A DNA stretch of 33,119 nt from sequence record OR992646. One strand, 5' to 3'. This DNA is from Escherichia phage ET-SD-TH. A program made the position numbers and the translations under genes. Shown here in pieces: positions 7,674 to 32,683 of the stretch. Positions within the stretch are counted from its first letter, which is position 1. Every line of letters starts with the position of its first letter. The notes below the pieces were generated by a model. That model worked only from the letters and a program-made list of their open reading frames with translations. It searched no databases and had not been told where the DNA came from.

Positions 7674-10600
7674 AAAGGCGACAAATCAGTAACNNNNNNN
7701 NNNNNNNNNNNNNNNNNNNNNNNNNNNNNNNNNNNNNNNNNNNNNNNNNNNNNNNNNNNNNNNNNNNNNNNNNNNNNNNNNNNNNNNNNNNNNNNNNNNN
7801 NNNNNNNNNNNNNNNNNNNNNNNNNNNNNNNNNNNNNNNNNNNNNNNNNNNNNNNNNNNNNNNNNNNNNNNNNNNNNNNNNNNNNNNNNNNNNNNNNNNN
7901 NNNNNNNNNNNNNNNNNNNNNNNNNNNNNNNNNNNNNNNNNNNNNNNNNNNNNNNNNNNNNNNNNNNNNNNNNNNNNNNNNNNNNNNNNNNNNNNNNNNN
8001 NNNNNNNNNNNNNNNNNNNNNNNNNNNNNNNNNNNNNNNNNNNNNNNNNNNNNNNNNNNNNNNNNNNNNNNNNNNNNNNNNNNNNNNNNNNNNNNNNNNN
8101 NNNNNNNNNNNNNNNNNNNNNNNNNNNNNNNNNNNNNNNNNNNNNNNNNNNNNNNNNNNNNNNNNNNNNNNNNNNNNNNNNNNNNNNNNNNNNNNNNNNN
8201 NNNNNNNNNNNNNNNNNNNNNNNNNNNNNNNNNNNNNNNNNNNNNNNNNNNNNNNNNNNNNNNNNNNNNNNNNNNNNNNNNNNNNNNNNNNNNNNNNNNN
8301 NNNNNNNNNNNNNNNNNNNNNNNNNNNNNNNNNNNNNNNNNNNNNNNNNNNNNNNNNNNNNNNNNNNNNNNNNNNNNNNNNNNNNNNNNNNNNNNNNNNN
8401 NNNNNNNNNNNNNNNNNNNNNNNNNNNNNNNNNNNNNNNNNNNNNNNNNNNNNNNNNNNNNNNNNNNNNNNNNNNNNNNNNNNNNNNNNNNNNNNNNNNN
8501 NNNNNNNNNNNNNNNNNNNNNNNNNNNNNNNNNNNNNNNNNNNNNNNNNNNNNNNNNNNNNNNNNNNNNNNNNNNNNNNNNNNNNNNNNNNNNNNNNNNN
8601 NNNNNNNNNNNNNNNNNNNNNNNNNNNNNNNNNNNNNNNNNNNNNNNNNNNNNNNNNNNNNNNNNNNNNNNNNNNNNNNNNNNNNNNNNNNNNNNNNNNN
8701 NNNNNNNNNNNNNNNNNNNNNNNNNNNNNNNNNNNNNNNNNNNNNNNNNNNNNNNNNNNNNNNNNNNNNNNNNNNNNNNNNNNNNNNNNNNNNNNNNNNN
8801 NNNNNNNNNNNNNNNNNNNNNNNNNNNNNNNNNNNNNNNNNNNNNNNNNNNNNNNNNNNNNNNNNNNNNNNNNNNNNNNNNNNNNNNNNNNNNNNNNNNN
8901 NNNNNNNNNNNNNNNNNNNNNNNNNNNNNNNNNNNNNNNNNNNNNNNNNNNNNNNNNNNNNNNNNNNNNNNNNNNNNNNNNNNNNNNNNNNNNNNNNNNN
9001 NNNNNNNNNNNNNNNNNNNNNNNNNNNNNNNNNNNNNNNNNNNNNNNNNNNNNNNNNNNNNNNNNNNNNNNNNNNNNNNNNNNNNNNNNNNNNNNNNNNN
9101 NNNNNNNNNNNNNNNNNNNNNNNNNNNNNNNNNNNNNNNNNNNNNNNNNNNNNNNNNNNNNNNNNNNNNNNNNNNNNNNNNNNNNNNNNNNNNNNNNNNN
9201 NNNNNNNNNNNNNNNNNNNNNNNNNNNNNNNNNNNNNNNNNNNNNNNNNNNNNNNNNNNNNNNNNNNNNNNNNNNNNNNNNNNNNNNNNNNNNNNNNNNN
9301 NNNNNNNNNNNNNNNNNNNNNNNNNNNNNNNNNNNNNNNNNNNNNNNNNNNNNNNNNNNNNNNNNNNNNNNNNNNNNNNNNNNNNNNNNNNNNNNNNNNN
9401 NNNNNNNNNNNNNNNNNNNNNNNNNNNNNNNNNNNNNNNNNNNNNNNNNNNNNNNNNNNNNNNNNNNNNNNNNNNNNNNNNNNNNNNNNNNNNNNNNNNN
9501 NNNNNNNNNNNNNNNNNNNNNNNNNNNNNNNNNNNNNNNNNNNNNNNNNNNNNNNNNNNNNNNNNNNNNNNNNNNNNNNNNNNNNNNNNNNNNNNNNNNN
9601 NNNNNNNNNNNNNNNNNNNNNNNNNNNNNNNNNNNNNNNNNNNNNNNNNNNNNNNNNNNNNNNNNNNNNNNNNNNNNNNNNNNNNNNNNNNNNNNNNNNN
9701 NNNNNNNNNNNNNNNNNNNNNNNNNNNNNNNNNNNNNNNNNNNNNNNNNNNNNNNNNNNNNNNNNNNNNNNNNNNNNNNNNNNNNNNNNNNNNNNNNNNN
9801 NNNNNNNNNNNNNNNNNNNNNNNNNNNNNNNNNNNNNNNNNNNNNNNNNNNNNNNNNNNNNNNNNNNNNNNNNNNNNNNNNNNNNNNNNNNNNNNNNNNN
9901 NNNNNNNNNNNNNNNNNNNNNNNNNNNNNNNNNNNNNNNNNNNNNNNNNNNNNNNNNNNNNNNNNNNNNNNNNNNNNNNNNNNNNNNNNNNNNNNNNNNN
10001 NNNNNNNNNNNNNNNNNNNNNNNNNNNNNNNNNNNNNNNNNNNNNNNNNNNNNNNNNNNNNNNNNNNNNNNNNNNNNNNNNNNNNNNNNNNNNNNNNNNN
10101 NNNNNNNNNNNNNNNNNNNNNNNNNNNNNNNNNNNNNNNNNNNNNNNNNNNNNNNNNNNNNNNNNNNNNNNNNNNNNNNNNNNNNNNNNNNNNNNNNNNN
10201 NNNNNNNNNNNNNNNNNNNNNNNNNNNNNNNNNNNNNNNNNNNNNNNNNNNNNNNNNNNNNNNNNNNNNNNNNNNNNNNNNNNNNNNNNNNNNNNNNNNN
10301 NNNNNNNNNNNNNNNNNNNNNNNNNNNNNNNNNNNNNNNNNNNNNNNNNNNNNNNNNNNNNNNNNNNNNNNNNNNNNNNNNNNNNNNNNNNNNNNNNNNN
10401 NNNNNNNNNNNNNNNNNNNNNNNNNNNNNNNNNNNNNNNNNNNNNNNNNNNNNNNNNNNNNNNNNNNNNNNNNNNNNNNNNNNNNNNNNNNNNNNNNNNN
10501 NNNNNNNNNNNNNNNNNNNNNNNNNNNNNNNNNNNNNNNNNNNNNNNNNNNNNNNNNNNNNNNNNNNNNNNNNNNNNNNNNNNNNNNNNNNNNNNNNNNN

Positions 10601-12750
10601 NNNNNNNNNNNNNNNNNNNNNNNNNNNNNNNNNNNNNNNNNNNNNNNNNNNNNNNNNNNNNNNNNNNNNNNNNNNNNNNNNNNNNNNNNNNNNNNNNNNN
10701 NNNNNNNNNNNNNNNNNNNNNNNNNNNNNNNNNNNNNNNNNNNNNNNNNNNNNNNNNNNNNNNNNNNNNNNNNNNNNNNNNNNNNNNNNNNNNNNNNNNN
10801 NNNNNNNNNNNNNNNNNNNNNNNNNNNNNNNNNNNNNNNNNNNNNNNNNNNNNNNNNNNNNNNNNNNNNNNNNNNNNNNNNNNNNNNNNNNNNNNNNNNN
10901 NNNNNNNNNNNNNNNNNNNNNNNNNNNNNNNNNNNNNNNNNNNNNNNNNNNNNNNNNNNNNNNNNNNNNNNNNNNNNNNNNNNNNNNNNNNNNNNNNNNN
11001 NNNNNNNNNNNNNNNNNNNNNNNNNNNNNNNNNNNNNNNNNNNNNNNNNNNNNNNNNNNNNNNNNNNNNNNNNNNNNNNNNNNNNNNNNNNNNNNNNNNN
11101 NNNNNNNNNNNNNNNNNNNNNNNNNNNNNNNNNNNNNNNNNNNNNNNNNNNNNNNNNNNNNNNNNNNNNNNNNNNNNNNNNNNNNNNNNNNNNNNNNNNN
11201 NNNNNNNNNNNNNNNNNNNNNNNNNNNNNNNNNNNNNNNNNNNNNNNNNNNNNNNNNNNNNNNNNNNNNNNNNNNNNNNNNNNNNNNNNNNNNNNNNNNN
11301 NNNNNNNNNNNNNNNNNNNNNNNNNNNNNNNNNNNNNNNNNNNNNNNNNNNNNNNNNNNNNNNNNNNNNNNNNNNNNNNNNNNNNNNNNNNNNNNNNNNN
11401 NNNNNNNNNNNNNNNNNNNNNNNNNNNNNNNNNNNNNNNNNNNNNNNNNNNNNNNNNNNNNNNNNNNNNNNNNNNNNNNNNNNNNNNNNNNNNNNNNNNN
11501 NNNNNNNNNNNNNNNNNNNNNNNNNNNNNNNNNNNNNNNNNNNNNNNNNNNNNNNNNNNNNNNNNNNNNNNNNNNNNNNNNNNNNNNNNNNNNNNNNNNN
11601 NNNNNNNNNNNNNNNNNNNNNNNNNNNNNNNNNNNNNNNNNNNNNNNNNNNNNNNNNNNNNNNNNNNNNNNNNNNNNNNNNNNNNNNNNNNNNNNNNNNN
11701 NNNNNNNNNNNNNNNNNNNNNNNNNNNNNNNNNNNNNNNNNNNNNNNNNNNNNNNNNNNNNNNNNNNNNNNNNNNNNNNNNNNNNNNNNNNNNNNNNNNN
11801 NNNNNNNNNNNNNNNNNNNNNNNNNNNNNNNNNNNNNNNNNNNNNNNNNNNNNNNNNNNNNNNNNNNNNNNNNNNNNNNNNNNNNNNNNNNNNNNNNNNN
11901 NNNNNNNNNNNNNNNNNNNNNNNNNNNNNNNNNNNNNNNNNNNNNNNNNNNNNNNNNNNNNNNNNNNNNNNNNNNNNNNNNNNNNNNNNNNNNNNNNNNN
12001 NNNNNNNNNNNNNNNNNNNNNNNNNNNNNNNNNNNNNNNNNNNNNNNNNNNNNNNNNNNNNNNNNNNNNNNNNNNNNNNNNNNNNNNNNNNNNNNNNNNN
12101 NNNNNNNNNNNNNNNNNNNNNNNNNNNNNNNNNNNNNNNNNNNNNNNNNNNNNNNNNNNNNNNNNNNNNNNNNNNNNNNNNNNNNNNNNNNNNNNNNNNN
12201 NNNNNNNNNNNNNNNNNNNNNNNNNNNNNNNNNNNNNNNNNNNNNNNNNNNNNNNNNNNNNNNNNNNNNNNNNNNNNNNNNNNNNNNNNNNNNNNNNNNN
12301 NNNNNNNNNNNNNNNNNNNNNNNNNNNNNNNNNNNNNNNNNNNNNNNNNNNNNNNNNNNNNNNNNNNNNNNNNNNNNNNNNNNNNNNNNNNNNNNNNNNN
12401 NNNNNNNNNNNNNNNNNNNNNNNNNNNNNNNNNNNNNNNNNNNNNNNNNNNNNNNNNNNNNNNNNNNNNNNNNNNNNNNNNNNNNNNNNNNNNNNNNNNN
12501 NNNNNNNNNNNNNNNNNNNNNNNNNNNNNNNNNNNNNNNNNNNNNNNNNNNNNNNNNNNNNNNNNNNNNNNNNNNNNNNNNNNNNNNNNNNNNNNNNNNN
12601 NNNNNNNNNNNNNNNNNNNNNNNNNNNNNNNNNNNNNNNNNNNNNNNNNNNNNNNNNNNNNNNNNNNNNNNNNNNNNNNNNNNNNNNNNNNNNNNNNNNN
12701 NNNNNNNNNNNNNNNNNNNNNNNNNNNNNNNNNNNNNNNNNNNNNNNNNN

Positions 12751-12947: not shown

Positions 12948-15900
12948 NNNNNNNNNNNNNNNNNNNNNNNNNNNNNNNNNNNNNNNNNNNNNNNNNNNNN
13001 NNNNNNNNNNNNNNNNNNNNNNNNNNNNNNNNNNNNNNNNNNNNNNNNNNNNNNNNNNNNNNNNNNNNNNNNNNNNNNNNNNNNNNNNNNNNNNNNNNNN
13101 NNNNNNNNNNNNNNNNNNNNNNNNNNNNNNNNNNNNNNNNNNNNNNNNNNNNNNNNNNNNNNNNNNNNNNNNNNNNNNNNNNNNNNNNNNNNNNNNNNNN
13201 NNNNNNNNNNNNNNNNNNNNNNNNNNNNNNNNNNNNNNNNNNNNNNNNNNNNNNNNNNNNNNNNNNNNNNNNNNNNNNNNNNNNNNNNNNNNNNNNNNNN
13301 NNNNNNNNNNNNNNNNNNNNNNNNNNNNNNNNNNNNNNNNNNNNNNNNNNNNNNNNNNNNNNNNNNNNNNNNNNNNNNNNNNNNNNNNNNNNNNNNNNNN
13401 NNNNNNNNNNNNNNNNNNNNNNNNNNNNNNNNNNNNNNNNNNNNNNNNNNNNNNNNNNNNNNNNNNNNNNNNNNNNNNNNNNNNNNNNNNNNNNNNNNNN
13501 NNNNNNNNNNNNNNNNNNNNNNNNNNNNNNNNNNNNNNNNNNNNNNNNNNNNNNNNNNNNNNNNNNNNNNNNNNNNNNNNNNNNNNNNNNNNNNNNNNNN
13601 NNNNNNNNNNNNNNNNNNNNNNNNNNNNNNNNNNNNNNNNNNNNNNNNNNNNNNNNNNNNNNNNNNNNNNNNNNNNNNNNNNNNNNNNNNNNNNNNNNNN
13701 NNNNNNNNNNNNNNNNNNNNNNNNNNNNNNNNNNNNNNNNNNNNNNNNNNNNNNNNNNNNNNNNNNNNNNNNNNNNNNNNNNNNNNNNNNNNNNNNNNNN
13801 NNNNNNNNNNNNNNNNNNNNNNNNNNNNNNNNNNNNNNNNNNNNNNNNNNNNNNNNNNNNNNNNNNNNNNNNNNNNNNNNNNNNNNNNNNNNNNNNNNNN
13901 NNNNNNNNNNNNNNNNNNNNNNNNNNNNNNNNNNNNNNNNNNNNNNNNNNNNNNNNNNNNNNNNNNNNNNNNNNNNNNNNNNNNNNNNNNNNNNNNNNNN
14001 NNNNNNNNNNNNNNNNNNNNNNNNNNNNNNNNNNNNNNNNNNNNNNNNNNNNNNNNNNNNNNNNNNNNNNNNNNNNNNNNNNNNNNNNNNNNNNNNNNNN
14101 NNNNNNNNNNNNNNNNNNNNNNNNNNNNNNNNNNNNNNNNNNNNNNNNNNNNNNNNNNNNNNNNNNNNNNNNNNNNNNNNNNNNNNNNNNNNNNNNNNNN
14201 NNNNNNNNNNNNNNNNNNNNNNNNNNNNNNNNNNNNNNNNNNNNNNNNNNNNNNNNNNNNNNNNNNNNNNNNNNNNNNNNNNNNNNNNNNNNNNNNNNNN
14301 NNNNNNNNNNNNNNNNNNNNNNNNNNNNNNNNNNNNNNNNNNNNNNNNNNNNNNNNNNNNNNNNNNNNNNNNNNNNNNNNNNNNNNNNNNNNNNNNNNNN
14401 NNNNNNNNNNNNNNNNNNNNNNNNNNNNNNNNNNNNNNNNNNNNNNNNNNNNNNNNNNNNNNNNNNNNNNNNNNNNNNNNNNNNNNNNNNNNNNNNNNNN
14501 NNNNNNNNNNNNNNNNNNNNNNNNNNNNNNNNNNNNNNNNNNNNNNNNNNNNNNNNNNNNNNNNNNNNNNNNNNNNNNNNNNNNNNNNNNNNNNNNNNNN
14601 NNNNNNNNNNNNNNNNNNNNNNNNNNNNNNNNNNNNNNNNNNNNNNNNNNNNNNNNNNNNNNNNNNNNNNNNNNNNNNNNNNNNNNNNNNNNNNNNNNNN
14701 NNNNNNNNNNNNNNNNNNNNNNNNNNNNNNNNNNNNNNNNNNNNNNNNNNNNNNNNNNNNNNNNNNNNNNNNNNNNNNNNNNNNNNNNNNNNNNNNNNNN
14801 NNNNNNNNNNNNNNNNNNNNNNNNNNNNNNNNNNNNNNNNNNNNNNNNNNNNNNNNNNNNNNNNNNNNNNNNNNNNNNNNNNNNNNNNNNNNNNNNNNNN
14901 NNNNNNNNNNNNNNNNNNNNNNNNNNNNNNNNNNNNNNNNNNNNNNNNNNNNNNNNNNNNNNNNNNNNNNNNNNNNNNNNNNNNNNNNNNNNNNNNNNNN
15001 NNNNNNNNNNNNNNNNNNNNNNNNNNNNNNNNNNNNNNNNNNNNNNNNNNNNNNNNNNNNNNNNNNNNNNNNNNNNNNNNNNNNNNNNNNNNNNNNNNNN
15101 NNNNNNNNNNNNNNNNNNNNNNNNNNNNNNNNNNNNNNNNNNNNNNNNNNNNNNNNNNNNNNNNNNNNNNNNNNNNNNNNNNNNNNNNNNNNNNNNNNNN
15201 NNNNNNNNNNNNNNNNNNNNNNNNNNNNNNNNNNNNNNNNNNNNNNNNNNNNNNNNNNNNNNNNNNNNNNNNNNNNNNNNNNNNNNNNNNNNNNNNNNNN
15301 NNNNNNNNNNNNNNNNNNNNNNNNNNNNNNNNNNNNNNNNNNNNNNNNNNNNNNNNNNNNNNNNNNNNNNNNNNNNNNNNNNNNNNNNNNNNNNNNNNNN
15401 NNNNNNNNNNNNNNNNNNNNNNNNNNNNNNNNNNNNNNNNNNNNNNNNNNNNNNNNNNNNNNNNNNNNNNNNNNNNNNNNNNNNNNNNNNNNNNNNNNNN
15501 NNNNNNNNNNNNNNNNNNNNNNNNNNNNNNNNNNNNNNNNNNNNNNNNNNNNNNNNNNNNNNNNNNNNNNNNNNNNNNNNNNNNNNNNNNNNNNNNNNNN
15601 NNNNNNNNNNNNNNNNNNNNNNNNNNNNNNNNNNNNNNNNNNNNNNNNNNNNNNNNNNNNNNNNNNNNNNNNNNNNNNNNNNNNNNNNNNNNNNNNNNNN
15701 NNNNNNNNNNNNNNNNNNNNNNNNNNNNNNNNNNNNNNNNNNNNNNNNNNNNNNNNNNNNNNNNNNNNNNNNNNNNNNNNNNNNNNNNNNNNNNNNNNNN
15801 NNNNNNNNNNNNNNNNNNNNNNNNNNNNNNNNNNNNNNNNNNNNNNNNNNNNNNNNNNNNNNNNNNNNNNNNNNNNNNNNNNNNNNNNNNNNNNNNNNNN

Positions 15901-18793
15901 NNNNNNNNNNNNNNNNNNNNNNNNNNNNNNNNNNNNNNNNNNNNNNNNNNNNNNNNNNNNNNNNNNNNNNNNNNNNNNNNNNNNNNNNNNNNNNNNNNNN
16001 NNNNNNNNNNNNNNNNNNNNNNNNNNNNNNNNNNNNNNNNNNNNNNNNNNNNNNNNNNNNNNNNNNNNNNNNNNNNNNNNNNNNNNNNNNNNNNNNNNNN
16101 NNNNNNNNNNNNNNNNNNNNNNNNNNNNNNNNNNNNNNNNNNNNNNNNNNNNNNNNNNNNNNNNNNNNNNNNNNNNNNNNNNNNNNNNNNNNNNNNNNNN
16201 NNNNNNNNNNNNNNNNNNNNNNNNNNNNNNNNNNNNNNNNNNNNNNNNNNNNNNNNNNNNNNNNNNNNNNNNNNNNNNNNNNNNNNNNNNNNNNNNNNNN
16301 NNNNNNNNNNNNNNNNNNNNNNNNNNNNNNNNNNNNNNNNNNNNNNNNNNNNNNNNNNNNNNNNNNNNNNNNNNNNNNNNNNNNNNNNNNNNNNNNNNNN
16401 NNNNNNNNNNNNNNNNNNNNNNNNNNNNNNNNNNNNNNNNNNNNNNNNNNNNNNNNNNNNNNNNNNNNNNNNNNNNNNNNNNNNNNNNNNNNNNNNNNNN
16501 NNNNNNNNNNNNNNNNNNNNNNNNNNNNNNNNNNNNNNNNNNNNNNNNNNNNNNNNNNNNNNNNNNNNNNNNNNNNNNNNNNNNNNNNNNNNNNNNNNNN
16601 NNNNNNNNNNNNNNNNNNNNNNNNNNNNNNNNNNNNNNNNNNNNNNNNNNNNNNNNNNNNNNNNNNNNNNNNNNNNNNNNNNNNNNNNNNNNNNNNNNNN
16701 NNNNNNNNNNNNNNNNNNNNNNNNNNNNNNNNNNNNNNNNNNNNNNNNNNNNNNNNNNNNNNNNNNNNNNNNNNNNNNNNNNNNNNNNNNNNNNNNNNNN
16801 NNNNNNNNNNNNNNNNNNNNNNNNNNNNNNNNNNNNNNNNNNNNNNNNNNNNNNNNNNNNNNNNNNNNNNNNNNNNNNNNNNNNNNNNNNNNNNNNNNNN
16901 NNNNNNNNNNNNNNNNNNNNNNNNNNNNNNNNNNNNNNNNNNNNNNNNNNNNNNNNNNNNNNNNNNNNNNNNNNNNNNNNNNNNNNNNNNNNNNNNNNNN
17001 NNNNNNNNNNNNNNNNNNNNNNNNNNNNNNNNNNNNNNNNNNNNNNNNNNNNNNNNNNNNNNNNNNNNNNNNNNNNNNNNNNNNNNNNNNNNNNNNNNNN
17101 NNNNNNNNNNNNNNNNNNNNNNNNNNNNNNNNNNNNNNNNNNNNNNNNNNNNNNNNNNNNNNNNNNNNNNNNNNNNNNNNNNNNNNNNNNNNNNNNNNNN
17201 NNNNNNNNNNNNNNNNNNNNNNNNNNNNNNNNNNNNNNNNNNNNNNNNNNNNNNNNNNNNNNNNNNNNNNNNNNNNNNNNNNNNNNNNNNNNNNNNNNNN
17301 NNNNNNNNNNNNNNNNNNNNNNNNNNNNNNNNNNNNNNNNNNNNNNNNNNNNNNNNNNNNNNNNNNNNNNNNNNNNNNNNNNNNNNNNNNNNNNNNNNNN
17401 NNNNNNNNNNNNNNNNNNNNNNNNNNNNNNNNNNNNNNNNNNNNNNNNNNNNNNNNNNNNNNNNNNNNNNNNNNNNNNNNNNNNNNNNNNNNNNNNNNNN
17501 NNNNNNNNNNNNNNNNNNNNNNNNNNNNNNNNNNNNNNNNNNNNNNNNNNNNNNNNNNNNNNNNNNNNNNNNNNNNNNNNNNNNNNNNNNNNNNNNNNNN
17601 NNNNNNNNNNNNNNNNNNNNNNNNNNNNNNNNNNNNNNNNNNNNNNNNNNNNNNNNNNNNNNNNNNNNNNNNNNNNNNNNNNNNNNNNNNNNNNNNNNNN
17701 NNNNNNNNNNNNNNNNNNNNNNNNNNNNNNNNNNNNNNNNNNNNNNNNNNNNNNNNNNNNNNNNNNNNNNNNNNNNNNNNNNNNNNNNNNNNNNNNNNNN
17801 NNNNNNNNNNNNNNNNNNNNNNNNNNNNNNNNNNNNNNNNNNNNNNNNNNNNNNNNNNNNNNNNNNNNNNNNNNNNNNNNNNNNNNNNNNNNNNNNNNNN
17901 NNNNNNNNNNNNNNNNNNNNNNNNNNNNNNNNNNNNNNNNNNNNNNNNNNNNNNNNNNNNNNNNNNNNNNNNNNNNNNNNNNNNNNNNNNNNNNNNNNNN
18001 NNNNNNNNNNNNNNNNNNNNNNNNNNNNNNNNNNNNNNNNNNNNNNNNNNNNNNNNNNNNNNNNNNNNNNNNNNNNNNNNNNNNNNNNNNNNNNNNNNNN
18101 NNNNNNNNNNNNNNNNNNNNNNNNNNNNNNNNNNNNNNNNNNNNNNNNNNNNNNNNNNNNNNNNNNNNNNNNNNNNNNNNNNNNNNNNNNNNNNNNNNNN
18201 NNNNNNNNNNNNNNNNNNNNNNNNNNNNNNNNNNNNNNNNNNNNNNNNNNNNNNNNNNNNNNNNNNNNNNNNNNNNNNNNNNNNNNNNNNNNNNNNNNNN
18301 NNNNNNNNNNNNNNNNNNNNNNNNNNNNNNNNNNNNNNNNNNNNNNNNNNNNNNNNNNNNNNNNNNNNNNNNNNNNNNNNNNNNNNNNNNNNNNNNNNNN
18401 NNNNNNNNNNNNNNNNNNNNNNNNNNNNNNNNNNNNNNNNNNNNNNNNNNNNNNNNNNNNNNNNNNNNNNNNNNNNNNNNNNNNNNNNNNNNNNNNNNNN
18501 NNNNNNNNNNNNNNNNNNNNNNNNNNNNNNNNNNNNNNNNNNNNNNNNNNNNNNNNNNNNNNNNNNNNNNNNNNNNNNNNNNNNNNNNNNNNNNNNNNNN
18601 NNNNNNNNNNNNNNNNNNNNNNNNNNNNNNNNNNNNNNNNNNNNNNNNNNNNNNNNNNNNNNNNNNNNNNNNNNNNNNNNNNNNNNNNNNNNNNNNNNNN
18701 NNNNNNNNNNNNNNNNNNNNNNNNNNNNNNNNNNNNNNNNNNNNNNNNNNNNNNNNNNNNNNNNNNNNNNNNNNNNNNNNNNNNNNNNNNNNN

Positions 18794-23404: not shown

Positions 23405-24064
23405 TTAATGTCGCCTTATCTAATGCTAAAATCAATTTTGATTATCCACGCACAACGCGAATNNNNNNNNNNNNNNNNNNNNNNNNNNNNNNNNNNNNNN
23501 NNNNNNNNNNNNNNNNNNNNNNNNNNNNNNNNNNNNNNNNNNNNNNNNNNNNNNNNNNNNNNNNNNNNNNNNNNNNNNNNNNNNNNNNNNNNNNNNNNNN
23601 NNNNNNNNNNNNNNNNNNNNNNNNNNNNNNNNNNNNNNNNNNNNNNNNNNNNNNNNNNNNNNNNNNNNNNNNNNNNNNNNNNNNNNNNNNNNNNNNNNNN
23701 NNNNNNNNNNNNNNNNNNNNNNNNNNNNNNNNNNNNNNNNNNNNNNNNNNNNNNNNNNNNNNNNNNNNNNNNNNNNNNNNNNNNNNNNNNNNNNNNNNNN
23801 NNNNNNNNNNNNNNNNNNNNNNNNNNNNNNNNNNNNNNNNNNNNNNNNNNNNNNNNNNNNNNNNNNNNNNNNNNNNNNNNNNNNNNNNNNNNNNNNNNNN
23901 NNNNNNNNNNNNNNNNNNNNNNNNNNNNNNNNNNNNNNNNNNNNNNNNNNNNNNNNNNNNNNNNNNNNNNNNNNNNNNNNNNNNNNNNNNNNNNNNNNNN
24001 NNNNNNNNNNNNNNNNNNNNNNNNNNNNNNNNNNNNNNNNNNNNNNNNNNNNNNNNNNNNNNNN

Positions 24065-25589: not shown

Positions 25590-25660
25590 GTAACCCCCCA
25601 ATAATTATAAATAAAAGTCAATATGGGGATTGTAGCACACAGAATATACGAAAGTAACAA

Positions 25661-25928
25661 GGGACTAGCTTGGGACTATCTCGGGAAAAGATAGTCCCAC
25701 TATTATATTATTGATTAACTTGAAGAAAACGCCATTTTCTTGCTAGTTTGGGACAAGTGGGACCAAATTTCCCTATATATACTATTACTCCCCCTATATT
25801 TATAAATAATGTTTTATAAAAAGATAGTCCCTTATAGTCCCAAATGGTGTTTTCGTTATTAATATCAGTAACTTAAAGTGGGACCAGCTCAAAAAAAGAT
25901 AGTCCCATTTGGGACCATAGATAGTCCC
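25661..25928. repeat. array of 11 GGGAC-core repeats (consensus GATAGTCCCA / TGGGACTATC) in AT-rich DNA; candidate replication origin iterons or operator array
   Basis: GGGAC at 25661, 25672, 25750, 25759, 25880, 25911; GTCCC at 25694, 25827, 25837, 25902, 25924; several form inverted pairs; AT-rich tract with CCCTATAT twice (25771-25800) lies in the middle. Confidence 0.6.
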
Positions 25929-25988
25929 AAATCGCATTTGTATGACAATTACTTACCAGAAAAAGTGGTTAATATTGCTAAATCGACC

Positions 25989-26013
25989 AAAAAAAAACCG
26001 CCCGAAGGCGGTT
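25989..26013 (-). terminator. intrinsic terminator ending the leftward early/replication transcription unit
   Basis: Minus-strand RNA AACCGCC-UUCG-GGCGGUU followed by nine U (plus-strand A run 25989-25997, stem-loop 25996-26013), 6 nt after the stop at 26019-26021. Confidence 0.7.
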
Positions 26014-26018
26014 AGTTT

Positions 26019-26273
26019 TCAATCGCGGTTTGGTCCGGTTGGGATGTCGGTAAATCCTCTGCGCTTCCACAGGTGATACAGTCGCCATGCGATGCGTGCG
26101 CGTGGCATTGTTTTGAAGGTTCCCAGTTTGCGTTGATGTTTGCCATCAACGCACGTCACCTGCCAACCCCACGCCAGCCGCTGACAGCCAGGGACGCGCG
26201 CCATGTGCAGGTTGCGGTTGCTGATTGCTGTGACTGCCGGTTTTGGTTTTGCCACCACTGGTGCTGGTTTTTG
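26019..26273 (-). CDS. C-terminal part of a hypothetical protein with AP2-like DNA-binding motif (5' part masked)
   Basis: Frame is open from the N run to TGA at 26021-26019; Pro/Ala/Lys-rich linker then WQVTCVDGKHQRKLGTFKTMPRARIAWRLY resembling the AP2 pattern; terminator follows the stop. Confidence 0.35.
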   Translation of the reverse strand, partial: QKPAPVVAKPKPAVTAISNRNLHMARVPGCQRLAWGWQVTCVDGKHQRKLGTFKTMPRARIAWRLYHLWKRRGFTDIPTGPNRD

Positions 26274-27017
26274 NNNNNNNNNNNNNNNNNNNNNNNNNNN
26301 NNNNNNNNNNNNNNNNNNNNNNNNNNNNNNNNNNNNNNNNNNNNNNNNNNNNNNNNNNNNNNNNNNNNNNNNNNNNNNNNNNNNNNNNNNNNNNNNNNNN
26401 NNNNNNNNNNNNNNNNNNNNNNNNNNNNNNNNNNNNNNNNNNNNNNNNNNNNNNNNNNNNNNNNNNNNNNNNNNNNNNNNNNNNNNNNNNNNNNNNNNNN
26501 NNNNNNNNNNNNNNNNNNNNNNNNNNNNNNNNNNNNNNNNNNNNNNNNNNNNNNNNNNNNNNNNNNNNNNNNNNNNNNNNNNNNNNNNNNNNNNNNNNNN
26601 NNNNNNNNNNNNNNNNNNNNNNNNNNNNNNNNNNNNNNNNNNNNNNNNNNNNNNNNNNNNNNNNNNNNNNNNNNNNNNNNNNNNNNNNNNNNNNNNNNNN
26701 NNNNNNNNNNNNNNNNNNNNNNNNNNNNNNNNNNNNNNNNNNNNNNNNNNNNNNNNNNNNNNNNNNNNNNNNNNNNNNNNNNNNNNNNNNNNNNNNNNNN
26801 NNNNNNNNNNNNNNNNNNNNNNNNNNNNNNNNNNNNNNNNNNNNNNNNNNNNNNNNNNNNNNNNNNNNNNNNNNNNNNNNNNNNNNNNNNNNNNNNNNNN
26901 NNNNNNNNNNNNNNNNNNNNNNNNNNNNNNNNNNNNNNNNNNNNNNNNNNNNNNNNNNNNNNNNNNNNNNNNNNNNNNNNNNNNNNNNNNNNNNNNNNNN
27001 NNNNNNNNNNNNNNNNN

Positions 27018-27232: not shown

Positions 27233-27949
27233 NNNNNNNNNNNNNNNNNNNNNNNNNNNNNNNNNNNNNNNNNNNNNNNNNNNNNNNNNNNNNNNNNNNN
27301 NNNNNNNNNNNNNNNNNNNNNNNNNNNNNNNNNNNNNNNNNNNNNNNNNNNNNNNNNNNNNNNNNNNNNNNNNNNNNNNNNNNNNNNNNNNNNNNNNNNN
27401 NNNNNNNNNNNNNNNNNNNNNNNNNNNNNNNNNNNNNNNNNNNNNNNNNNNNNNNNNNNNNNNNNNNNNNNNNNNNNNNNNNNNNNNNNNNNNNNNNNNN
27501 NNNNNNNNNNNNNNNNNNNNNNNNNNNNNNNNNNNNNNNNNNNNNNNNNNNNNNNNNNNNNNNNNNNNNNNNNNNNNNNNNNNNNNNNNNNNNNNNNNNN
27601 NNNNNNNNNNNNNNNNNNNNNNNNNNNNNNNNNNNNNNNNNNNNNNNNNNNNNNNNNNNNNNNNNNNNNNNNNNNNNNNNNNNNNNNNNNNNNNNNNNNN
27701 NNNNNNNNNNNNNNNNNNNNNNNNNNNNNNNNNNNNNNNNNNNNNNNNNNNNNNNNNNNNNNNNNNNNNNNNNNNNNNNNNNNNNNNNNNNNNNNNNNNN
27801 NNNNNNNNNNNNNNNNNNNNNNNNNNNNNNNNNNNNNNNNNNNNNNNNNNNNNNNNNNNNNNNNNNNNNNNNNNNNNNNNNNNNNNNNNNNNNNNNNNNN
27901 NNNNNNNNNNNNNNNNNNNNNNNNNNNNNNNNNNNNNNNNNNNNNNNNN

Positions 27950-27981: not shown

Positions 27982-30072
27982 TCAAAATGGCCGGTCATCA
28001 TCGTCATGGAATCGCCGGTGGTCAGGGTTTGGCACCTTCGGCGGAATACTGAACAGGCGATTGCTGCCAGACTTCCTGGCAGGCTTGCCAGTGAGTTTTC
28101 TCAGTACCCCTGCACAATGTGTCGTCTGTGCCTTGTTCGGCTTGTCGTAGCCAATTTCTTGCAGCACCTGCGTTGCTGTACGGTCGGTATAGGCTGCCGG
28201 TCTGTCGCAACCCCACTCGTAACGCATCAGTATCATTTCCTCTACCGGGTCAATTGCTTCGTGTTCCTTGTTCACCTGTTCCAGCATGGCTTCTTCTTCT
28301 GCGTTCATCCACCAGCGCTCGCCTTCGCGGTACAACTGCGCCACTTCTGCCCAAACCTGCTGCATATCAATATCGTGTTCGTAGTTGATGCGTGTCACTG
28401 GAATAGTCCACCAGCGAACGTTCCCTGTATCATCCGCAAGGAAGTGTTTCGGGTTCACTGACGCAAAAAACACGGTTCTGCGCTGGTAGGTCGATTCAAG
28501 CCGGTCATAAGGTCTGCGGATTTCGTCACGGTCCTGGCTGATGAATGATTTCAGGCGTGCGATGTCCGATTTACGGAAAGTTGCATCCAGTTCACCAAGC
28601 TCCACCATCCAGCGTCCTATTGCGCTGCTGACGCTATCTTTGTTTGCCGGGTCGATTGTTGCCCCTACCTTAATCAGTTCACGCAGTGTAGGCGGCACCA
28701 GCGAGCGAAACCATGCTGTTTTCCCCAGCGACTGTTCGCCCTGTAGCACCAGAACGCCTTTTGAGTAGAACCCGGTTGGCTGCATCGCGGCAGCAACGGC
28801 GGAAATCAACCAGCGGCGAACCATCATCAACACCAGGCTTCGATCAAAACCTTCCGCCGTTTCCAGTGTATCGCACAGGTCATAAATGCGGCTCACACCA
28901 TCCCACGGTTTTGCGGTGATAAATTCAGATGCCGGATTGTAACGGTTGCTCATGGCAATCAGTTTTACATACTCAGCACAGGAACCAGACGGCATACCGT
29001 TGCGGGCGCACAGGCTGACAATTTCAGTCAATGCGCTGTTCGCTGATGCGTCGTTGCCGTAATCCTTGCCGGGGATCGTAACTACCACATCTTTGCTGAT
29101 TTCGTTGTAACGCGATTTTATGCCGTACTGGGTAAGCAGCCATTCCAGGTTTTCCCACGTGTTAAGCGGTTTTTGCTGGTGGCTCATGTGCGGGAACATG
29201 AACGGGTTTACGCTGGCATCTAGCGGCAGAAAGTTATCATTCACCGGTTCCGGAATCACCGCGTTAATCTGGTTGCATACAGCTTTTAAACCTTCCAGTA
29301 CGTGCAGGTCATTAAAGTCGGTCGGCTTATCGCTAAGGCGCATAAATTTAGGAACCGCCAGCAGGCCACCAGTGGTGATTGATGCCTGGCGAGCGTAGTG
29401 AACGCCATCATTTTGCTTGCCATCTTCGTGCCACTGGTCGTTATCGGCTGCCACAACAATTGTTGCGCGTCCGAACTGCTGACGCATTAGCTTGGCTACG
29501 GTCGGAACGTTGCCAGCATCGAACGCGACCACCACGCAGTAACCGGTAGCCTGGTGGATTGACGCGCCGGTGGAATACCCTTCACAGATAACAATAACCG
29601 GGTTTGCGCCAGTTGGTTTATTGCCAATGACGTGGAAGCACCCACGTTTCTGGCCCCCAGGAAGGTAATCACGGTCACGCCCTAGCTGTGGGTTTTCGTT
29701 CTGGAATATGGCTTGCAGGCTGGTGATCTGCCCGTCAATGTTTCTGATTGGCACCAGCAGCGCGCCATCCTGGTTACGAAAACGACCAATGCGCAGCCCG
29801 AATGATTTAACCAGTTTGCGTTTCAGATATGGGTGTTCATCGCCTTCCAGTTCGGTGGCTGATTCCCATATGGTGTTCGCCTGCGCAGCAGCCTGCGCCA
29901 TACGTTCTGCGCGCAGTTGTTGTTCTTTGCGCTCTTCTTCTTCGCGGCGTTTTTTACGCGCCTGAATCTCTTCGGCAGAAATCGGTGTGCGTTCGTTATC
30001 GTTCAGCGAAAAGCCAAATAACTGCGCCTCACCAATCAGGGTGCCAATCCCAATGCCTCCGTGACGCTTCAC
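27982..30072 (-). CDS. P4-type DNA primase/helicase (Toprim plus D5/P4-like NTPase), as the ORF reinitiating at GTG 30072
   Basis: 696-aa ORF; Toprim-like VIVICEGYSTGASIHQATGYCVVVAFDAGNV and DND motif; Walker A GEQSLGKT in the C-terminal half. The upstream in-frame 120 nt encode the start of a PriCT-2-like domain but are cut off by TAA at 30165-30163. Confidence 0.8.
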   Translation of the reverse strand: MKRHGGIGIGTLIGEAQLFGFSLNDNERTPISAEEIQARKKRREEEERKEQQLRAERMAQAAAQANTIWESATELEGDEHPYLKRKLVKSFGLRIGRFRNQDGALLVPIRNIDGQITSLQAIFQNENPQLGRDRDYLPGGQKRGCFHVIGNKPTGANPVIVICEGYSTGASIHQATGYCVVVAFDAGNVPTVAKLMRQQFGRATIVVAADNDQWHEDGKQNDGVHYARQASITTGGLLAVPKFMRLSDKPTDFNDLHVLEGLKAVCNQINAVIPEPVNDNFLPLDASVNPFMFPHMSHQQKPLNTWENLEWLLTQYGIKSRYNEISKDVVVTIPGKDYGNDASANSALTEIVSLCARNGMPSGSCAEYVKLIAMSNRYNPASEFITAKPWDGVSRIYDLCDTLETAEGFDRSLVLMMVRRWLISAVAAAMQPTGFYSKGVLVLQGEQSLGKTAWFRSLVPPTLRELIKVGATIDPANKDSVSSAIGRWMVELGELDATFRKSDIARLKSFISQDRDEIRRPYDRLESTYQRRTVFFASVNPKHFLADDTGNVRWWTIPVTRINYEHDIDMQQVWAEVAQLYREGERWWMNAEEEAMLEQVNKEHEAIDPVEEMILMRYEWGCDRPAAYTDRTATQVLQEIGYDKPNKAQTTHCAGVLRKLTGKPARKSGSNRLFSIPPKVPNPDHRRFHDDDDRPF

Positions 30073-30165
30073 TGATTTCCAGGTGTCGCGTGCGTCTTTG
30101 CTGTTGTAATTGTCAGACAGGCGTGACCAGTGGTTCCAGACGGTGAAACCGCCGTCGCCTATTTA

Positions 30166-30285
30166 CGATTTGACCGCCATCGCCATGCGCACCCATGTTT
30201 CACGGTCGCAACCGGCGTCGATGTAGGAAAGTGCTTCTGCAATTTCCTGTTCGGTCAAATCCTTATAGTTTTGTTGTGCACTCAT
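30166..30285 (-). other. 5' segment of the primase reading frame (ATG 30285-30283), separated from the main ORF by an in-frame TAA
   Basis: Translation MSAQQNYKDLTEQEIAEALSYIDAGCDRETWVRMAMAVKS then TAA; the same frame continues IGDGGFTVWNHWSRLSDNYNSKDARDTWKSVKRHGGIGIGTLIGEAQLFGF, together resembling one PriCT-2 domain. Confidence 0.55.
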
Positions 30286-30297
30286 AGAACCCCGATT

Positions 30298-30528
30298 TTA
30301 TGGCCTGTTAGCGCGCCATATGGACAGTGCGCGTTGTTCTAGTTCTTCGCGGGCTGTTGCGCCGCGCTGTTTTTCTATCGCTGCCAGCAGGGTGCGCCGT
30401 GCTTCAATGGTTGGCTGATTCAGAACGTATTTGGCTTCGCATTCCAGCAACCATTCCCGGCTATCGCTCAACACTTCGCGCCCATCGTGCAGCGTCACTG
30501 TGGTGGGCTGCCAGGTACAGGCGTTCAC
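30298..30528 (-). CDS. hypothetical protein (76 aa)
   Basis: ORF with ATGA overlap to the upstream methyltransferase-like gene and ending 13 nt before the primase ATG; no recognisable motif. Confidence 0.45.
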   Translation of the reverse strand: MNACTWQPTTVTLHDGREVLSDSREWLLECEAKYVLNQPTIEARRTLLAAIEKQRGATAREELEQRALSIWRANRP

Positions 30529-31223
30529 GCGACCGCCTCACCGCTTGACGGTTCATTGTCGTTAGCGTGGCGCAGGTGAGGCGCGTTGGCGTTGAAAACA
30601 GCAATGGCGAAGCCCAATGGCGTTGCGCTGCGGATGTTTGCACGCTCTGGACCAGGTGGGCATTTATGGATTCTGTCATCTGGTGCGCCCAATGTTTCAT
30701 CGCGGAACGCTTCCGGCATCACGAATCCGCCACCAGTCCAAAGGCATGTTTTCTTCGTGTAGTTGTCGTTCGCACAGTAGCCAGTGTAATCAACAGGGTT
30801 GAAAGCGTGGTCAGGTTTGCGCCAAAGGCTGCTAATCTGGCTAACAGGGTTTTCAACTGCCCACGGCGTGCCAGCCATTTCACCAATGATCTGACACTGC
30901 CAGACAACGTGCATTGCTTTGAACTGAAAGGCCGGGTCAGCTTCGCGTTTTGTGTTGAACCAACGCGCGCCACTCACACCCAAATCAGTGCAAGGCGGGA
31001 ATCCCATAACGAAAACAACGCGGCCAGTAGCCACTGTGCGGCGAAGAATATCCCATGTTGCTGGATGGTCGATGATATGGCCAACGCGGGTGATTGCGCC
31101 ATCAACGTGAACGCCTTCCGGGTGTTGAGGGTCAACAAGAACTGCTTCGTAACCTGCGTCAACCCACGGCTTTGACATTGTGCCAGTGATGTCACACAGG
31201 CAGATGATAATTCCTTTACTCAT
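30525..31223 (-). CDS. putative short C5-cytosine DNA methyltransferase-like protein (orphan)
   Basis: 232-aa ORF with, in canonical order, a beta1-loop-acidic start (IIICLCDITGT...VLVD), a PC motif GFPPCTDLGVSG (motif IV-like) and ENV (WAVENPVS, motif VI-like). Motif I is non-canonical and the target-recognition region is short, so the assignment is tentative. No restriction endonuclease partner is visible. Confidence 0.5.
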   Translation of the reverse strand: MSKGIIICLCDITGTMSKPWVDAGYEAVLVDPQHPEGVHVDGAITRVGHIIDHPATWDILRRTVATGRVVFVMGFPPCTDLGVSGARWFNTKREADPAFQFKAMHVVWQCQIIGEMAGTPWAVENPVSQISSLWRKPDHAFNPVDYTGYCANDNYTKKTCLWTGGGFVMPEAFRDETLGAPDDRIHKCPPGPERANIRSATPLGFAIAVFNANAPHLRHANDNEPSSGEAVA

Positions 31224-32179: not shown

Positions 32180-32683
32180 TCATTTTCCGAACACCAGTTT
32201 TTCAGCGTCATCCACTGACCGCACAACACCGGCGCGGCCCCCGTTATCATTCACCGCGTTGATGAAGTTGCGTTGCAACGGTGACACGCGGGCACCGTCT
32301 TTGACTTCCAGGCCGGTGAAGATGGCCACTTTCTGGCCCACCATGTCAGGCGTGATTTCCACACTGACCAGGCCGAACAGGTCGGAAAACCCTGGCGGCA
32401 GCCCGGTGTCAAACGGCCTGGCGTTTTTCAGCAGCACGTCACGCGGCCCCATCACAACAGGCATCTGGCGCGGCACCTTCACCACTTCATTGCTTGTGTA
32501 AGCCTTGCCAACGTTGGCGCGAAACAGCAGGCAGCGGCCTGCCAGTGCGTTGCGGATTGCGTTCTGCAACGCGTGTTCTTTGTTAGCCATAGATAACCCC
32601 CACCAGGACGCAGCCAGAACCACCAGCAGCCAGAATAATTCATCATTCAGCATCGCCAGGACGCCACGCATGAACAGTTTCAT
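32180..32683 (-). CDS. VRR-NUC-like nuclease domain protein (start ambiguous: 32683 or 32590)
   Basis: GFSDLF...TGLEVKDGARVSPLQRNFINAVNDNGGRAGVVRSVDDAEKL follows the VRR-NUC pattern (PDL...EVK...Q...G...VV). ATG 32683 is ATGA-coupled to the upstream gene but adds a hydrophobic N-terminus; internal ATG 32590 has a strong GGTGGGGG Shine-Dalgarno. Confidence 0.5.
   Translation of the reverse strand: MKLFMRGVLAMLNDELFWLLVVLAASWWGLSMANKEHALQNAIRNALAGRCLLFRANVGKAYTSNEVVKVPRQMPVVMGPRDVLLKNARPFDTGLPPGFSDLFGLVSVEITPDMVGQKVAIFTGLEVKDGARVSPLQRNFINAVNDNGGRAGVVRSVDDAEKLVFGK

Follow-up and report, generated by a model that had tools for sequence, protein, structure and literature searches.

An in-frame ochre codon within a cluster of transversions splits the PriCT-2 domain of the primase-helicase gene of Escherichia phage ET-SD-TH

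It has been reported that the 56-kDa form of the T7 gene 4 protein, which is made without the N-terminal zinc-binding domain, is fully active as a helicase and carries out no template-directed priming (PMC2910064). Small helical domains, among them the PriCT-1/helix-bundle domain of pRN1 ORF904, PriL-CTD and PriX, are reported to bind template DNA or initiating nucleotides, and priming by pRN1-type enzymes requires helix-bundle/PriCT domains (PMC2965215, PMC5862659); an important part in primer synthesis has also been ascribed to PriCT domains, for which, PriCT-2 included, homology with PriL-CTD and PriX has been proposed (PMC5862659). The closest described counterparts of the gene studied here are ECO1230-10 gp41 (YP_009168923) and the primases of the Jilinvirus phages ep3, ECOO78, Arya and HeidiAbel/Bas97, which represent the same gene in the same place, between a DUF7696-like small gene and the late region. 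ECO1230-10, ep3, KA2-1 and Arya each annotate one uninterrupted gene of about 767 aa that begins at the same ATG as the frame described below.

In this study, we analysed a window of 33,119 nucleotides from Escherichia phage ET-SD-TH (OR992646), that is, the whole stretch of DNA presented, in which the orthologue of ECO1230-10 gp41, a primase-helicase gene with a PriCT-2 domain, a Toprim domain, a VapE/D5-like helicase and a C-terminal winged-helix-like region, lies on the minus strand at 27982-30285. Its ATG at 30285 opens a frame of 768 codons, counting the internal TAA and the terminal TGA, which is interrupted once, by the ochre codon at 30165-30163 (codon 41), and then runs on for 726 more codons to the TGA at 27984-27982. 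The preliminary description had placed an in-frame TAA in a primase/helicase, and ORF calling and translation reproduced every position that it gave. The residual 40-codon ORF before the stop (30163-30285, minus strand) reads MSAQQ...AMAVKS, ends in ETWVRMAMAVKS and comprises the first helix and half of the second in the PriCT-2 bundle, and the frame resumes after the stop with IGDGGFTVWNHWSRLSDNYNSKDARDTWKSVKRHGGIGIGTL. The first canonical in-frame start past the TAA is GTG at 30072 (codon 72), which opens an ORF of 696 aa (27982-30072, minus strand). Since the 768 codons match those of the intact ECO1230-10 gene and of six metagenomic relatives with zero indels, the uninterrupted frame past the TAA is more than chance. 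Nucleotide identity to ECO1230-10 gp41 is 94.7%, with the same PriCT_2-Toprim-VapE architecture, and the metagenomic relatives share 98-99% amino-acid identity with the primase of this phage.

A Pfam scan of the read-through translation, with the stop masked, returned three domains. PriCT_2 (PF08707) scored 69 bits against a cut-off of 22 over residues 16-86 (30028-30240, minus strand), covering profile positions 2-76 of 77, and this match crosses the stop, as anticipated by the earlier suggestion that the two pieces belong to one PriCT-2-type domain. When the pieces were scanned singly, the 40-aa piece matched profile positions 1-28 and the piece after the stop positions 36-76; with the TAA at codon 41, the domain is not encoded as a single uninterrupted polypeptide in this phage. 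The Toprim_3 match (41.2 bits against a cut-off of 27.2) spans residues 231-332, an intact region at 29290-29595 on the minus strand. E235 is kept in nearly all of 58 homologues and D281 and D283 in every one, and all three acidic residues are present in the translation of this phage, within CEGYSTG and AADNDQW; the profile match together with the Glu and the DxD identifies a Toprim domain of DnaG type, the catalytic domain of a primase. The VapE-like match (PF05272; 174.8 bits against a cut-off of 25) covers residues 460-676 (28258-28908, minus strand), likewise intact, and includes the Walker A motif GEQSLGKT, whose G516, G521 and K522 are invariant in the homologues. The profile, the Walker A motif and the similarity to 7pds described below assign this part to the VapE/D5-like P-loop helicases, with helicase activity as a prediction.

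To view the interruption in structural terms, an AlphaFold2 model was made of P0001, an intact homologue that is 99% identical to the protein of this phage (mean pLDDT 84). The model shows an N-terminal four-helix bundle (helices 12-20, 28-54, 62-71 and 80-89), followed by a long helix at 104-142, the Toprim domain, the helicase and a small C-terminal domain. In this model codon 41 lies midway along the longest bundle helix, and a product begun at GTG72 or at ATT80, an in-frame codon considered below as a possible restart site, would retain just the last bundle helix. In the profile scan, neither of these two products gave a PriCT_2 match, and the Toprim and VapE matches were complete in both. 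The helicase half resembles PriRep1 (7pds) both in sequence (E=8e-18) and in Foldseek comparison (E=2e-18, TM 0.66 on the target), and the fold search also matched other D5-like helicases with this half, and the DnaG RPD and T7 gp4 primase with the central Toprim part. Because the central part matches the DnaG RPD and T7 gp4, the PriCT-2 bundle occupies the place of the zinc-binding domain of DnaG-type primases.

Codon 41 is GAA in all four annotated phages and in the six metagenomic relatives. The preliminary description had proposed an alignment against intact homologous primases and had listed GAA, CAA, AAA and TAT as codons one substitution away from the stop; the alignment gave Glu at this position in every one of the 40 close homologues and, among diverse homologues (down to about 48% identity), in 57 of 58, and the original codon is therefore the first of those four. 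The search of the protein collection yielded 631 homologues, of which the best 120 are nearly all 737-777 aa long with PriCT_2. The preliminary description had named homologues that naturally start near the GTG at 30072 as a finding that would refute it; none among the best 120 of the 631 starts near codon 72, and it thus stands on this point. A degenerate pattern with the TAA fixed at codon 41 found no match in the genome, viral and metagenome collections, so that the stop is unique to this sequence among those searched.

An exact look-up of the 40-aa product brought up two independent metagenome contigs from different samples, L009 (4719-4840) and L010 (1757-1878), both of which end exactly two bases into primase codon 41. 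They were rejected as support for the stop, being contig-end truncations that carry the wild-type ...TCGGA. The shared end is probably an assembly-graph branch point at which co-occurring Jilinvirus lineages start to diverge. As a separate observation, the first 240 nt or so of the primase gene (30046-30285) and the gp42-like gene upstream of it (30298-30528) are near-identical between the ECO1230-10-type and the ep3 lineage, with 0-2 differences per 60 nt, synonymous sites included, whereas the genes overall are only about 83% identical. The pattern points to a segment homogenised by recombination or to an additional constraint at the DNA or RNA level at the 5' end of the gene.

Given that the frame continues perfectly past the stop, it could be proposed that the full-length protein is still made, by an ochre suppressor tRNA, by programmed read-through or by codon reassignment. 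Known ochre suppressors could in principle insert Gln, Lys or Tyr, and codon 41 could in principle take any of these. However, 8 of 21 genes genuinely end in TAA and no tRNA was found in the readable part of the window, which together argue that there is no recoding. Moreover, this is the only in-frame stop, no relative has a stop at codon 41, the context (TAA-A) contains no recognisable read-through signal, and a near-invariant E41 as well as four other non-synonymous changes would remain to be accommodated. Neither stop-codon reassignment nor programmed read-through is thus indicated in the readable sequence, and we regard the production of the full-length protein past this stop as very improbable.

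The stop is not an isolated change. In addition to what the preliminary description had observed, comparison with the relatives revealed that it is the first of seven private substitutions, all transversions, within 117 nt of the gene (nt 121-237; 30049-30165, minus strand), private meaning unique to this sequence against a panel of seven relatives. On the coding strand these are G>T at 30165 (E41*), C>A at 30162 (L42I), G>C at 30132 (D52H), A>T at 30119 (Q56L), G>T at 30109 (K59N), C>A at 30058 (G76, synonymous) and C>G at 30049 (G79, synonymous). The whole primase gene has 22 private substitutions, and the occurrence of seven of them within 117 of 2304 nt is unlikely under a binomial model (P=7.5e-5). 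Transversions account for 7 of 7 changes in the patch versus 6 of 15 in the rest of the gene (Fisher P=0.01) and for about 48% of private changes across the window; six of the seven affect G:C pairs and four are of the G<->T or A<->C type. The patch consists of substitutions only, without indels, its flanks are identical to those of the relatives, and codons 1-40 carry no private change.

The patch falls in one of the bins that vary least in the relatives, with 6 variable sites across the six genomes. E41*, L42I, D52H, Q56L and K59N all affect residues that are invariant in the 40 close homologues; in the wider family of 58 homologues only E41 and L42 of these five are strongly conserved, I42 and H52 occur in none, and L56 and N59 in only one or two. 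The similarly distant relatives L008, L011 and L012 have 14-21 private substitutions, none of them non-synonymous.

Such a block might have been acquired as a unit, a 117-nt segment from an unsampled divergent lineage or a paralogue, the stop having arisen in the donor or after the transfer. These phages often carry mosaic patches, for example in the gp37-like gene at about 26150-26175, and a cluster of unique residues in the homologue P0032 matches the ep3-like lineage. In P0032, encoded on a 5.6-kb ENA contig, five residues within 302-316 are unique among the close homologues and match the ep3-like P0044, a clear case of a short recombination patch inside the Toprim domain, in contrast to the donor-less patch described here. 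Genuine patches carry residues of other lineages and are mostly synonymous or conservative, whereas I42 and H52 are in 0 of 58 homologues and the patch residues occur together in none of the best 120 of the 631. Furthermore, a back-translated pattern for DNA encoding WNHWSRLSDNY had no match in the viral and metagenome collections, the window contains no internal donor, and the flanks of the patch are those of the relatives. Import by recombination is accordingly the explanation to which we give the least credence.

Several other sources of the changes were considered and set aside. Templated or quasi-palindrome mutagenesis was rejected as the window holds no second copy of any mutated 11-13-mer, and the nearby repeats and inverted repeats miss the mutated bases. 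Changes linked to a diversity-generating retroelement (DGR-type) or to methylation motifs were rejected on inspection of the seven sites, at which the changed bases are not adenine-specific and share no common motif. The creation of a new internal promoter was likewise dropped, with no promoter-like site in 29700-30600. An old stop under relaxed selection does not fit codons 1-40 without private change, a patch denser than elsewhere and composed of transversions alone, or the absence of an excess of unique residues in the rest of the gene, which outside the patch has two, the control homologues having a median of 1 and at most 5.

The remainder of the gene and genome provides the background against which the patch has to be judged. 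The window is collinear with positions 2840-35966 of ECO1230-10 at 92-96% identity (80-99.7% per gene), and the collinear order and the high nucleotide identity identify it as a genome of Jilinvirus (Iiscvirinae), the taxonomy being that of the ECO1230-10 record. Runs of N at 755-845, 7694-12750, 12948-18793, 23463-24064, 26274-27017 and 27233-27949 make up 13,057 nt, or 39% of the window, and cover most of the genes for tail, baseplate and head, the spanin region and the small genes that lie directly downstream of the primase; the statements that the primase is the only broken gene and that there is no tRNA hold for the readable part. In that part, among 18 ungapped genes and gp37, which was checked by hand, an internal stop was found in the primase only. 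The primase differs from that of ECO1230-10 at 98 codons synonymously versus 17 non-synonymously, and the other readable genes compared show normal, synonymous-dominated divergence, under purifying selection.

The preliminary description had offered prophage decay as one cause of the stop, and this found no backing: the window, collinear with a complete Jilinvirus genome, contains no host DNA, and among the genes compared the primase alone is broken. The 5,426 complete E. coli genomes gave only 76%-identical partial matches, plasmids gave no close copy, and species-representative bacterial genomes gave distant relatives only. A decaying prophage or pseudogenised element was rejected on the lack of host flanks, the single disrupted gene and the synonymous-dominated divergence in the readable 61%. 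The lifestyle of Jilinvirus has been described as enigmatic, possibly facultatively temperate (bioRxiv 10.1101/2024.09.12.612763), and for this reason this genome might, in principle, still be of prophage origin.

Some features of the readable sequence away from the patch deserve mention in their own right. The gp37-like ORF (minus strand) contains at 26150-26175 an equal-length variant block, DGKHQRKL for DGKKKRTL in the relatives, where L012 is also highly divergent; the ORF is intact and the block is ordinary mosaic variation. A terminator-like hairpin with a T-run, AACCGCCTTCGGGCGGTTTTTT on the minus strand, follows directly after the gp37 stop. The AT-rich intergenic region at 25590-26030, between the gp37-like ORF and the late-activator (gp36-like) gene, holds many repeats, including direct and inverted copies of TGGGACTATCT / AGATAGTCCCA and of AAGTGGGACCA, which are kept in six of six relatives and one of which forms a perfect 11-nt palindromic pair (25671-25681 / 25689-25699). 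These motifs look like putative regulator-binding sites or iterons, of a late promoter region or an origin. The Holliday-junction-resolvase-like gene at 32180-32683 (minus strand) shares only about 80% identity with ECO1230-10 gp48, from which several small indels also separate it, and its longest ORF is 167 aa versus 137 aa annotated in ECO1230-10; either the allele is divergent or the gene has an alternative start further upstream. The cargo genes around the primase, a part mostly masked in this window, differ among L008, L011, L012, L013 and L015. Upstream there is a 232-aa protein (a DNA methyltransferase according to the ECO1230-10 record) versus a 417-aa PF00145 methylase in L012; downstream the relatives carry variable small ORFs, a Vut_1 (PF02592) protein in L011, and dATP/dGTP pyrophosphohydrolase-like (PF04447) genes of 210-299 aa.

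The question is then whether the patch exists in the phage or only in its consensus sequence, the true genome having GAA and an intact gene, with one or a few low-quality or damaged reads over a coverage dip as the cause of the difference. An all-transversion spectrum, with four of seven changes of the G<->T or A<->C type and six at G:C pairs, is at least as compatible with base-calling or damage artefacts as with a biological event, and 117 nt is about the length of one short read. The patch strikes residues invariant in 40 of 40 close homologues, in a very conserved bin; none of its changes occurs in any other public sequence in the collections searched; and the gene outside it is ordinary, with no relaxed selection. 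In addition, a phage sampled from virions would a priori only rarely carry a defective allele of a probably essential replication gene while the rest of its genome is pristine, and most of the close relatives come from metagenome assemblies, some of low coverage (the record name of L010 gives cov 3.0). On the other hand, about 12 kb of other comparable sequence is without similar damage and has no other stops or frameshifts, the private amino-acid changes elsewhere are conservative, and the patch is without indels. Generally poor sequence was rejected on these grounds: no other gene is broken, and the other dense private stretches that exist proved ordinary, in gp37 base by base, with conservative amino-acid changes. 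Taken together, the clean remainder of the readable window favours a real event, and a patch of about read length, composed of transversions alone, without a counterpart in the databases and situated in a probably essential gene, speaks for an artefact. We consider an error in the consensus or assembly a substantial possibility, and incline tentatively, at a confidence somewhat short of probable, to a real, very recent, clustered and disabling mutation.

A further possibility is that the mutation is real and the phage viable, through re-initiation at GTG72 or ATT80, with a Toprim-helicase lacking PriCT-2 as the product; priming would then not need the domain or would be supplied by the host, and the private change that creates a Shine-Dalgarno (SD) sequence, described below, would be compensatory. 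All 726 codons after the stop are open, with synonymous-dominated divergence, both products keep full Toprim and VapE matches, and the T7 56-kDa gene 4 protein is a precedent for a helicase without its N-terminal domain (PMC2910064). Re-initiation at GTG 30072, which the preliminary description had put forward, nevertheless appears weak. This codon lies 93 nt past the stop, its anti-SD pairing of -3.3 kcal/mol is unchanged from that of the relatives (ATG129 reaches +0.2), and codon 72 encodes Val in only 16 of 58 homologues versus Ile in 30, so that no internal start is conserved there; M129 is present in 5 of 58. A primase-helicase with two isoforms, of the T7 gene 4A/4B type, is not indicated either, as there is no conserved internal start with a ribosome-binding site.

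A more speculative restart site is created by the patch itself. The private C>A at 30058 turns GGCGG into GGAGG (30060-30056), 7 nt upstream of the in-frame ATT80 (30048-30046; the site as a whole 30046-30060, minus strand), and the predicted anti-SD duplex is -9.5 kcal/mol versus -5.0 in the relative L011, a pairing that equals the best SDs of the window. This change might be compensatory. Against this, ATT initiates very poorly in E. coli, and random substitutions in the patch would create so strong an SD with a chance of about 5%. The other four amino-acid changes have no evident compensatory role, nearly all of the best 120 of 631 homologues retain PriCT-2, and in characterised systems priming depends on PriCT/helix-bundle domains (PMC2965215, PMC5862659). 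A tolerated truncation is therefore unlikely in our view. If it were true, PriCT-2 would be dispensable for this class of primase-helicase, or host DnaG would take over priming, and the phage would provide a natural counterpart of the T7 56-kDa gene 4 protein.

The real and disabling mutation that we prefer may have arisen as follows. A single local event, possibly a patch of error-prone or damage-induced synthesis, would have left seven transversions in 117 nt, among them the G->T that turned the near-invariant Glu41 codon (GAA) of a Jilinvirus primase-helicase into an ochre stop. Ribosomes starting at ATG 30285 would stop after 40 residues, in the middle of the longest PriCT-2 helix, and for this reason the full-length enzyme could not be made. 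The remaining 726 codons would be expressed only through inefficient re-initiation at GTG72 or ATT80, giving a protein with Toprim and helicase and without PriCT-2, which by analogy with the characterised enzymes would at best act as a helicase and prime little or not at all. Too little time would have passed since the lesion for decay, so that the rest of the gene is intact, and this copy of the genome would probably be replication-impaired or defective.

In either case the TAA is an ordinary lesion or a sequence error, not a programmed feature or a novel mechanism, and it matters little beyond annotation. If the change is real, it represents a null or severely hypomorphic allele of the only primase-helicase, and the annotation should show one disrupted gene instead of two genes or a 696-aa "primase"; if it is an artefact, the source sequence needs correcting over 117 nt. 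Should the phage prove viable, it would carry a natural deletion of an uncharacterised N-terminal PriCT-2 domain in a Toprim-VapE enzyme, and thereby offer a direct test of the role of that domain.

Compared with the Jilinvirus primases, which are uninterrupted, the gene of ET-SD-TH differs by the TAA in place of GAA at codon 41 and by the six private transversions downstream. The PriRep1 and SaPI5 primase-helicases and the C-terminal region of NrS-1 (7pds, 7ola, 6k9c) have a similar VapE/D5-like helicase half; they use AEP-type primase domains, whereas here a Toprim domain is preceded by PriCT-2, and they are uninformative on the lesion. The small helical domains of pRN1 ORF904, PriL-CTD and PriX are found on AEP primases, usually C-terminal to the catalytic domain, in contrast to the PriCT-2 domain here, which is N-terminal to a Toprim primase and to which a role in priming may be ascribed by analogy only. 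The 63-kDa and 56-kDa products of T7 gene 4 are alike in that a Toprim-type primase is fused to a helicase, hexameric in T7, and is preceded by a small N-terminal domain for template recognition. However, the T7 short form comes from a natural and efficient internal start, while no internal start is conserved here; the N-terminal domain is a zinc ribbon in T7 and a helical PriCT-2 bundle in this phage; and the T7 helicase is DnaB-like, that of ET-SD-TH VapE/D5-like, of the SF3 type, as in PriRep1 (7pds).
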